Virus record (IMG/VR): IMGVR_UViG_2908567220_000003
Length of the DNA: 61,488 bases
Reading direction: 5' to 3' (one strand)
DNA from: a virus
Taxonomy: Duplodnaviria; Heunggongvirae; Uroviricota; Caudoviricetes
The notes below the pieces were generated by a model. That model saw nothing but the letters and a program-made list of their open reading frames with translations. It was not told the DNA's origin and ran no database searches. Made by a program: the position numbers and the translations under genes. Positions 50,367-50,968 of the stretch are shown here, piece after piece (the first letter of the stretch is position 1; each line of letters starts with the position of its first letter).

Positions 50367-50645
50367 TCAATACGGTTCTGGCGAGCCGCTTACGAAAGTG
50401 CGGGACGGACGTGGTGGGCGTTCGGAATAAGGCAGCCTGACAGAGATTATCCAGTGCCGATAGTCGAGACTGAGAGCTTTCTTAACCTCGAACCCGCGCC
50501 TGCGGTAAGAATGAATCAGCCATTCGGCCTGTTCTTCAGTACATGGTGGGTGTTGGTACCAGTCGGTTTTAAATGCGTGTGAACGCCGCCCATGCCGGAT
50601 GGCAAGGTCGGTATCAGAATTGTGAAATTTGGTTTTGTGCGCCAT
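50367..50645 (-). CDS. hypothetical protein with C-terminus replaced by IS66 read-through
   Basis: ATG at 50645; IS inserted at codon 82; without the IS the frame would end FQQRIWR-stop at 47663. Confidence 0.4.
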   Translation of the reverse strand: MAHKTKFHNSDTDLAIRHGRRSHAFKTDWYQHPPCTEEQAEWLIHSYRRRGFEVKKALSLDYRHWIISVRLPYSERPPRPSRTFVSGSPEPY

Positions 50646-50812
50646 CTGTTTTCTCTGCTGGCGCAGCAGGTGTCAGGTGTTCAGGCTGACGTGCGAATTG
50701 TAAACCAGAATGCCAGGAAAAAACAAAACCCGCCGAAGCGGGTTAAGTGCGGGTGCGTTGAGGATGCCTGACACATCAGAGGTGGCGAGGGATTTCTCCC
50801 CCGCCAGGTCTC

Positions 50813-50968
50813 TTACTCCTCAGGTTCGTAAGCTGTGAAGACAGCGACCTCCGTCTGGCCGGTTCGGATTCGTACCTCGCAGAGGTCTTTCCTCGTTACC
50901 AGTGCCGTCACTATGACGGTTAAACAGATGACGATCAGGGCGATTAACATCGCCTTTTGCTGCTTCAT
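50813..50968 (-). CDS. hokD: Hok-family type I toxin (HokD/RelF-like)
   Basis: 51-aa ORF MKQQKAMLIALIVICLTVIVTALVTRKDLCEVRIRTGQTEVAVFTAYEPEE; not in ORF track because under 60 aa. Confidence 0.8.
   Translation of the reverse strand: MKQQKAMLIALIVICLTVIVTALVTRKDLCEVRIRTGQTEVAVFTAYEPEE

Follow-up and report, generated by a model that had tools for sequence, protein, structure and literature searches.

Does a hok-type toxin gene without recognizable protein partners also lack an antitoxin? This question is raised by a locus in a 61,488-nt viral sequence (IMG/VR record IMGVR_UViG_2908567220_000003), which we analyzed over its full length and refer to as the window. An initial annotation, made from the sequence alone, described the locus as a solitary toxin gene of the HokD/RelF type, lacking relB and relE, next to a small gene whose 3′ end had been rewritten by an IS66 insertion. 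We find that the toxin gene very probably belongs to a complete hok/sok module in the nin region of a lambdoid (Qin/Rac-like) E. coli prophage. The locus is best annotated as a complete type I toxin-antitoxin system of the hokD/hokW type, with mok and Sok, and not as a lone toxin.

The toxin gene itself had been recognized correctly. The open reading frame (ORF) at 50813..50968 on the minus strand encodes a small (~50 aa), hydrophobic protein of the Hok/Gef type, 51 aa in length (MKQQKAMLIALIVICLTVIVTALVTRKDLCEVRIRTGQTEVAVFTAYEPEE), and is preceded by the Shine-Dalgarno sequence AGGAG at 50978..50982. The protein matches Pfam HOK_GEF (PF01848) with 82.9 bits (cut-off 22, E = 1.2e-23) and PHROG 251, "MokW-like host killing" (E = 2.8e-33). 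RefSeq labels the hok DNA of the window hokD, with hundreds of genomes at 99.9-100% identity. A check for changes that would inactivate Hok found none, as the protein is identical to K-12 HokD (RelF) at 51 of 51 residues (100%). HokD was the toxic positive control in a survey of Hok proteins (bioRxiv 10.1101/2025.08.07.668861), and the window protein is presumably toxic in its own strain, as identical and near-identical proteins are known to be from the literature. The survey also reports UACG in hok mRNAs as a context of A-to-I editing by TadA, which changes Tyr to Cys, and lists hokD among the edited mRNAs (bioRxiv 10.1101/2025.08.07.668861). Read from the window sequence, the Tyr47 codon UAC (50828..50830, minus strand) is followed by G, giving UACG within UUACGAA.

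The reported absence of relB and relE also held. When K-12 RelE, RelB, Rem, YdfV, and FlxA were used as tblastn queries against the whole 61-kb window, none matched at E <= 1e-3; of the K-12 queries, only HokD and YdfU (79% identity) matched. A HokD-type ORF without relBE is a correct observation and lies far beyond chance. Comparison with the K-12 Qin relBE-hokD region, which the initial annotation had proposed, revealed where the two arrangements part. Downstream of the hok ATG, the window and K-12 differ at 2 positions in 244 nt, a stretch that takes in the fbi box and terminator described below, and in both prophages ydfU (DUF968) lies downstream. Upstream of the ATG, they are identical for 14 nt only, after which K-12 runs into relE. 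In contrast to the window, K-12 hokD has no tac, mok, Sok target, or sok, the whole leader being absent, and a scan of the K-12 region with the Rfam sok model gave no match. K-12 also differs in having rem inserted after the hokD terminator, ahead of a phrog_1212 homologue that is not annotated.

Thus, the window does not contain an operon of the K-12 type, in which relBE lies immediately upstream of a leaderless hokD. The comparison shows that the K-12 junction arose by a rearrangement in which the hok leader was lost; the window has the ancestral, complete form, and K-12 is a derived, truncated exception. relBE is an unrelated type II module and not a partner of hok; it adjoins hokD in K-12 only because the rearrangement took away the leader. 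The K-12 arrangement serves as a reminder that a reference can be the derived state.

Upstream of hok, the window retains the leader that K-12 lacks. Using cmscan, we identified the hok mRNA leader (Rfam RF01794, "sok") at 50966..51137 on the minus strand, with a score of 106.7 bits (gathering score 59, E = 3e-23) over model positions 1-157 of 157. Since the hok AUG aligns with the final three positions of the model, the match corresponds to the hok mRNA leader on the hok-sense strand. This conserved, structured leader contains the tac hairpin, a long Sok-target hairpin with 16 nt inserted when compared to the Rfam consensus, a hairpin with the mok Shine-Dalgarno sequence and AUG, and a hairpin with the hok Shine-Dalgarno sequence. 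Together with the Sok hairpin and leader ORF described below, it confirms the expectation that mok/sok elements lie upstream of hok. The description of the toxin as solitary does not stand, as both the full leader and a predicted cis-encoded Sok antitoxin are kept.

To define the hok transcript, we took its start as position 1 of the Rfam model, a G at 51137, in alignment with R1-type and Sp5-type loci, and its end as the intrinsic terminator at 50727..50744 plus the U-run. The predicted full-length mRNA is ~420 nt long (50718..51137, minus strand), beginning with GGGUGCUUGAGG and ending with the terminator U-run; we infer these ends, and those of the Sok RNA below, by homology with the related loci. 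A terminator scan and folding both support the terminator (50718..50744 with its U-run, minus strand), which consists of the hairpin AACCCGC-UUCG-GCGGGUU followed by UUGUUUUUU. The minimum-free-energy fold of the mRNA has an energy of -175.1 kcal/mol (z = -8.5 versus shuffles).

In this fold, the two ends of the mRNA are joined by long-range pairing. Nucleotides 1-12, which form the tac element (51126..51137, minus strand), pair with the fbi (fold-back inhibition) box CCUCAACGCACCC at 50751..50763 on the minus strand, just upstream of the terminator. The fbi box is kept in K-12 hokD, and the corresponding fold-back of R1 hok mRNA is summarized in PMC9841398. In a consensus fold, all 12 tac-fbi pairs were present in 13 of 13 aligned chromosomal, phage, and plasmid relatives, two of which have unrelated terminators. 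The pairs vary by G-C to G-U only, with no double compensatory changes, and the pairing is supported by conservation and energy rather than by covariation. The 5′ hairpin does show double compensatory changes, at alignment columns 15/47 (A-U to G-C in four sequences) and 21/41 (in one sequence). When the 3′-trimmed mRNA (50766..51137) was folded, the published active conformation did not emerge clearly: centroid and minimum-free-energy structures disagree, and the Rfam tac hairpin is not clear in this fold.

Candidate promoters are present for both RNAs. For hok, promoter-like hexamers occupy 51144..51171 on the minus strand, with TTGCGG at -35 (51166..51171), a 16-nt spacer, and TAGAAT at -10 (51144..51149), 6 nt ahead of the +1 G as read from the sequence. 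TAGAAT is kept in 13 of 14 chromosomal and phage relatives. For Sok, hexamers at 50982..51011 on the plus strand consist of TTGACC at -35 (50982..50987), an 18-nt spacer, and TAATCT at -10 (51006..51011), and lie antisense to the hok Shine-Dalgarno region. Their position is homologous to that of the hexamers in Sp5-type loci (TTGCCT, 17 nt, TAACCT) and in R1-type loci (TTGCGC, 17 nt, TATCCT), the latter of which we take to be the R1 Sok promoter. A strict sigma-70 consensus scan of 50600..51300 returned no promoter for either hok or Sok; both putative promoters are weak matches, located by homology only.

Downstream of the Sok hexamers, folding and homology predict an antisense RNA of ~70 nt (51017..51088, plus strand). 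At its 5′ end, a short tail would cover the mok AUG; a long hairpin and then a UUUUCUCU tail would follow. The predicted sequence is complementary throughout to both the Shine-Dalgarno sequence and the AUG of mok. The fold of 51018..51098 has an energy of -33.8 kcal/mol (z = -5.2). Probe YO-592, which was used to detect sokW RNA, covers the stretch homologous to the predicted Sok (PMC8621323). By eye, we saw no clear YUNR U-turn motif in the Sok-target loop of the window allele. The upstream search for a Sok promoter and fold-back structures, as suggested in the initial annotation, thus succeeded for the latter, in the form of a hairpin with a U tail, and yielded a promoter only as hexamers assigned by homology.

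The region upstream of hok had been expected to contain no ORFs. Three-frame translation revealed a mok-equivalent leader ORF of 19 codons (MRHIEISLLRTERSRRSRL) at 50965..51024 on the minus strand. Its AUG, at 51024, occupies the same alignment position as the mok AUG in R1-type and phage loci and is preceded by a Shine-Dalgarno sequence, GAGG, at about 51034..51037 (minus strand). The UGA stop codon (50965..50967) overlaps the hok AUG as AUGA; by its sequence, the ORF would bring ribosomes into the hok translation-initiation region. In R1, the canonical mok is 70 codons long and overlaps hok in a different frame (PMC9841398). A long mok (~70 codons) of this kind is absent from the window, where the hok-overlapping frame is open and has no ATG, GTG, or TTG to start it. 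The R1-like long mok is also missing from the majority, in-frame allele of the hokD/hokW-type lineage.

To place the window allele among its relatives, we searched IMG/VR with a 29-nt pattern that covers the hok start, obtained 120 loci, and classified them together with the reference loci. In the pooled set, 120 loci could be scored for the mok frame. The leader AUG lies 57 nt from the hok AUG in 99 loci, in frame with hok, and the resulting 70-aa extended form is annotated "MokW". In eight loci the distance is 58 nt, giving an R1-like overlapping Mok of 68 aa. The remaining 13 are of the window type, with a distance of 56 nt, 19 codons, and UGA on the hok AUG. These 13 share one identical 75-nt leader and comprise eight distinct locus sequences; relative to the majority, their allele lacks 2 nt in the loop of the AUG hairpin and has gained 1 nt in the next hairpin. 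Regardless of frame, none of the 120 scored loci has a leader ORF that closes before the hok AUG.

This pattern can be set beside mutational studies of mok. [quoted passage not shown] Judged by its reading frame, the 19-codon ORF extends that far. We tentatively suggest that it might be a natural "minimal mok", in which selection acts only on translation into the hok start region, perhaps with a different coupling strength via termination-reinitiation in place of read-through. Since the survey of Hok proteins explicitly left Mok unanalyzed (bioRxiv 10.1101/2025.08.07.668861), the three-frame polymorphism may lack a systematic description. Together with the "minimal mok" allele, the polymorphism is all that is somewhat new about this locus, and it provides a small natural experiment that backs the translational-coupling model.

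Homology with plasmid R1 hok/sok and Sp5 hokW-sokW, applied to the sequence elements, predicted folds, and conservation described above, suggests how the module would operate. A weak constitutive promoter would produce a stable hok mRNA of ~420 nt that is translationally silent because its 5′ end (tac) is paired with the 3′ fbi box. Slow 3′ trimming would remove fbi, upon which the leader would refold and expose the leader ORF. Synthesis of Hok would then depend on ribosomes translating mok as far as the hok ribosome-binding site. The Sok RNA, short and predicted to be unstable, would be transcribed from the opposite strand, cover the mok Shine-Dalgarno sequence and AUG, and block translation, with the duplex marked for RNase III. 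Should Sok synthesis stop, Hok would be made and damage the inner membrane. For the window allele, coupling would involve unfolding of the hok start region together with termination-reinitiation.

Loss of the element and prophage induction are both possible triggers for the loss of Sok. In the window, hok and all flanking nin-region genes are on the minus strand. Upon induction, early-operon transcription on the hok-sense strand would run head-on into the Sok promoter, which in our view could explain a loss of Sok at this stage. The module may alternatively, or additionally, function in prophage stabilization or phage exclusion.

Two characterized systems resemble the window locus. The first, hokW-sokW of Sakai prophage 5 (an Stx2 phage of E. 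coli O157:H7), likewise resides in the nin region of a lambdoid prophage. We identified HokW through the primers given in PMC8621323, which match one of our loci (L015). The leader, fbi box, and Sok hairpin are common to hokW-sokW and the window, the DNA is ~91% identical, and residue comparison showed that HokW and the window Hok are identical at 47 of 51 residues. The two differ at the Hok C terminus (TAYEPEE in the window, VDYESEK in HokW), in their terminators and downstream genes, and in the leader: the hokW upstream AUG is in frame, 57 nt upstream, and gives the 70-aa "MokW", whereas that of the window is 56 nt upstream and opens the 19-codon ORF. hokW-sokW is a toxin module repressed by Sok; after RecA-dependent prophage induction, sokW RNA disappears and HokW appears, and phage release is roughly doubled by hokW-sokW (Takada et al., 2021, PMC8621323).

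The second system, R1 hok/sok (parB), has the same overall architecture as the window: tac pairs with fbi, and the mok AUG of the leader precedes hok by 19 codons. Its Sok promoter overlaps the hok Shine-Dalgarno region and its Sok RNA covers the mok start, as predicted for the window. R1 hok/sok is borne on a plasmid, whereas the window module is carried by a prophage, and R1 Hok is 44% identical to HokW (PMC8621323). The possible further roles named above, stabilization and phage exclusion, are known for R1 hok/sok (PMC8621323). With the Rfam sok model, the Sp5/933W-type hokW locus scored 113.5 bits and the phage Rac copy 111.1 bits, compared to 106.7 bits for the window and 87.2 bits for an R1-type IncFII plasmid copy.

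The full locus is also widespread. Of 5426 complete E. coli genomes, 3826 (~70%) have a match to 80% or more of the 501-bp locus with its leader, and the median is two matching places per genome. As the full locus is the majority form in E. coli, the missing relBE is expected and no peculiarity. The hok/sok system of the window is already known, is carried by most E. coli prophages, and is extremely common, and the locus has little importance beyond its correct annotation.

A locus with all its parts could nonetheless be an inert relic that neither kills when lost nor helps the phage. Tests of chromosomal hok loci in the older literature, among them hokA, hokB, and hokC, found no post-segregational killing (quoted in bioRxiv 10.1101/2025.08.07.668861), and thus the window locus could be complete yet phenotypically quiet. 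Such quiescence would also fit promoters weak enough to be missed by the strict scan and a prophage that has two IS insertions and may be decaying. However, Hok here is the toxic reference protein and all RNA elements are intact, and a close relative, hokW-sokW, is an active module that influences phage release. Retention of the locus with its leader in ~70% of E. coli genomes also argues against a relic, as does comparison with a locus that has decayed (L043), whose truncation of Hok has no equivalent in the window. We consider inertness unlikely, although a possibility of some weight.

Another way in which the module could have been disabled is through the one-frame shift in mok, if ribosomes stop at the UGA on the hok AUG and no Hok is made. 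The window type is a minority allele (13 of 120 loci), and the identical 75-nt leader in all 13 fits a single mutational origin. Yet the eight distinct locus sequences that carry it fall into two downstream contexts, that of the window and E. coli strain 4/0 and that of strain 55989, and hok is intact in all. Moreover, all of the hok Shine-Dalgarno sequence lies within the leader ORF, which stops 1 nt beyond the AUG, a classic geometry for coupling by translational reinitiation. mok stops downstream of the hok start have no effect on Hok (PMC9841398), and since the window ORF extends as far as the hok initiation region, we rate inactivation by the frameshift as quite improbable. The idea with which we began, that the toxin has no antitoxin and is the remnant of a relBE-hokD-type operon, would account for the missing relB and relE and has a precedent in K-12 HokD, which does lack its own antitoxin. 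It is very hard to credit for the window, which has a full leader and a predicted antisense Sok gene; relBE, an unrelated type II module, abuts hokD in K-12 through a leader-removing rearrangement 14 nt upstream of the ATG. A complete hok/sok module is the reading we retain.

The gene next to hok has a different history. This small gene of the phrog_1212 family starts 167 nt from the hok stop, close to the ~170 bp originally given, and encodes 92 aa at 50367..50645 on the minus strand. Residues 1-84 are native (50394..50645), and residues 85-92 (VSGSPEPY) and the stop codon (50367..50393, with the stop at 50367..50369) are encoded by the right end of the IS. The empty site is found in E. coli strain 4/0 (L001), where the intact gene has 90 codons and ends in RTF-QQRIWR, compared to RTF-VSGSPEPY in the window. 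Six native codons were exchanged for eight IS codons, with the junction on a codon boundary; the earlier statement that the last 6 codons were lost to the IS66 insertion is exact.

PHROG 1212, whose function is listed as unknown in the database, is the sole match of the neighbor protein, which had no match in Pfam, NCBIfam, PADLOC, or PDB sequences. The PHROG profile is covered over positions 1-66 of 66 by the intact L001 protein and 1-60 of 66 by the window copy, which is truncated and re-tailed and lacks the C-terminal QR[IV]WR. Conservation marks the phrog_1212-family gene as a true gene: of 134 loci, 89 have a homologue after hok, and the near-full-length homologues comprise 59 distinct sequences with identities down to 37%. 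The tail is conserved as well, with QR[IV]WR kept in 78 of 78 near-full-length copies. Part of this conservation may be due to GGAGG within the W-R-stop codons, which is the DUF968 Shine-Dalgarno sequence. Some phage records label the gene "rem". It is neither K-12 rem, as K-12 Rem has no match in the window, nor the "rem" of phage Rac (PHROG 340 versus 1212).

The inserted element is an ISCro1-like member of the IS66 family, 2704 bp in length (47690..50393, plus strand), as identified with Pfam, NCBIfam, and RefSeq. It has the IS66 gene set (tnpA-tnpB-tnpC), with tnpA (47775..48425), tnpB (48425..48772), and the transposase gene (48792..50363) matching the IS66 TnpA, TnpB, and transposase models, respectively. 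The terminal inverted repeats read GTAACCGTCTC... and ...GAGCCGCTTAC, and the element is flanked by an 8-bp target-site duplication, GAAAGTGC, at 47682..47689 and 50394..50401; the L001 empty site contains a single copy. Three ORFs (tnpA, tnpB, and a DDE transposase), an 8-bp duplication, and repeats that begin with GTAA are shared with ISCro1 and the IS66 family, from which the window IS has no notable difference. RefSeq labels its relatives "IS66-like element ISCro1 family transposase".

On the far side of the IS lies a DUF968 (YdfU-like) gene at 46601..47659 on the minus strand (Pfam DUF968, E = 2.9e-63; 79% identity to K-12 YdfU). It keeps its GTG start and its Shine-Dalgarno sequence, GGAGG, at 47664..47668. 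At the empty site, the TAA stop of the small gene lies 1 nt before the DUF968 GTG. In the window, DUF968 is split from the upstream operon by the 2.7-kb IS, whose genes are on the opposite strand. The element inserted 3′ of the hok locus and cut the phrog_1212 gene from DUF968-rusA-Q. From this layout, the IS is probably polar on DUF968-rusA-Q, affecting late-gene activation. With DUF968-rusA-Q detached from the early operon and the conserved end of the small phrog_1212 protein lost, the prophage may be impaired in late-gene activation and yet carry an intact killer module. As an event, the insertion is routine. A search of the 5426 complete E. coli genomes found none with the window IS junction and one unrelated ISCro1 site at 92% identity. 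The same 2704-bp unit is present at 100% identity, full length and as a discrete element, on several plasmids.

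The Hok Tyr47 codon of the window (50828..50830, minus strand) is UAC followed by G, within the sequence UUACGAA. TadA-mediated A-to-I editing has been described as recoding Tyr to Cys in hok mRNAs (bioRxiv 10.1101/2025.08.07.668861); if true of this codon, editing would provide an additional layer of toxicity control. In the related hok locus of IMG/VR contig IMGVR_UViG_2585427757_000011, Hok is cut after residue 37 by a premature stop, an example of a decayed hok in contrast to that of the window, which is intact.

Immediately upstream of the hok promoter lies an unannotated ORF (51227..51406, minus strand) encoding a hydrophobic protein of 59 residues, MKNALQFLFVAFWLFVSCMPIIF..., preceded by a strong Shine-Dalgarno sequence (GGAGGaataATG). 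The ORF is 36.7% GC, compared to 50.6% for the window, and looks moron-like. Its reading frame remains open, with several substitutions, in 20 hok-bearing loci. The ORF had no match in Pfam, PHROG, or PADLOC and is absent from the RefSeq annotation of strain 4/0, an E. coli strain with an empty IS site.

Between 50395 and 51200, the window and strain 4/0 differ by a single base, at 50587, which makes residue 19 of the phrog_1212-family protein Gly in the window and Glu in strain 4/0. E. coli K-12 MG1655 also carries an unannotated homologue of this gene (3328..3585, minus strand, in the K-12 comparison locus; about 1644327..1644584 in NC_000913), whose product is 80% identical over 86 residues. 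The homologue lies between ydfU and rem; rem is a separate gene, inserted in K-12 between the homologue and the hokD terminator. RefSeq also places a gene for a 59-residue "hypothetical protein" at 50592..50771 on the plus strand (WP_001112736.1 in strain 4/0), which is called a "mobile element protein" in some phage records. This call is antisense to the start of the phrog_1212-family gene and spans the hok terminator; it is probably spurious.

Another copy of the IS66-family element that clips the phrog_1212-family gene is present at 34295..36998, in the same orientation and 100% identical over 2704 bp. This copy is flanked by a separate 8-bp duplication, TATTTTTC. Rejoining its flanks reconstitutes an 81-codon frame on the minus strand that is open across the junction (...LEKEGKFPRKICIGPQTKVWRLSEVLEWV...) and, judged by eye, resembles AlpA-type phage regulators. 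The two identical direct copies are 10.7 kb apart, and recombination between them could delete the intervening segment.

Rfam searches identified the small RNAs DicF (56903..56954, plus strand; 76.7 bits) and STnc100 (44120..44309, minus strand; 132.4 bits), together with two tRNA genes (45009..45082 and 45186..45258, both minus strand), confirming a Qin/Rac-like lambdoid prophage context. In the near-identical strain 4/0 prophage, the tRNAs carry the annotations Arg and Ile.
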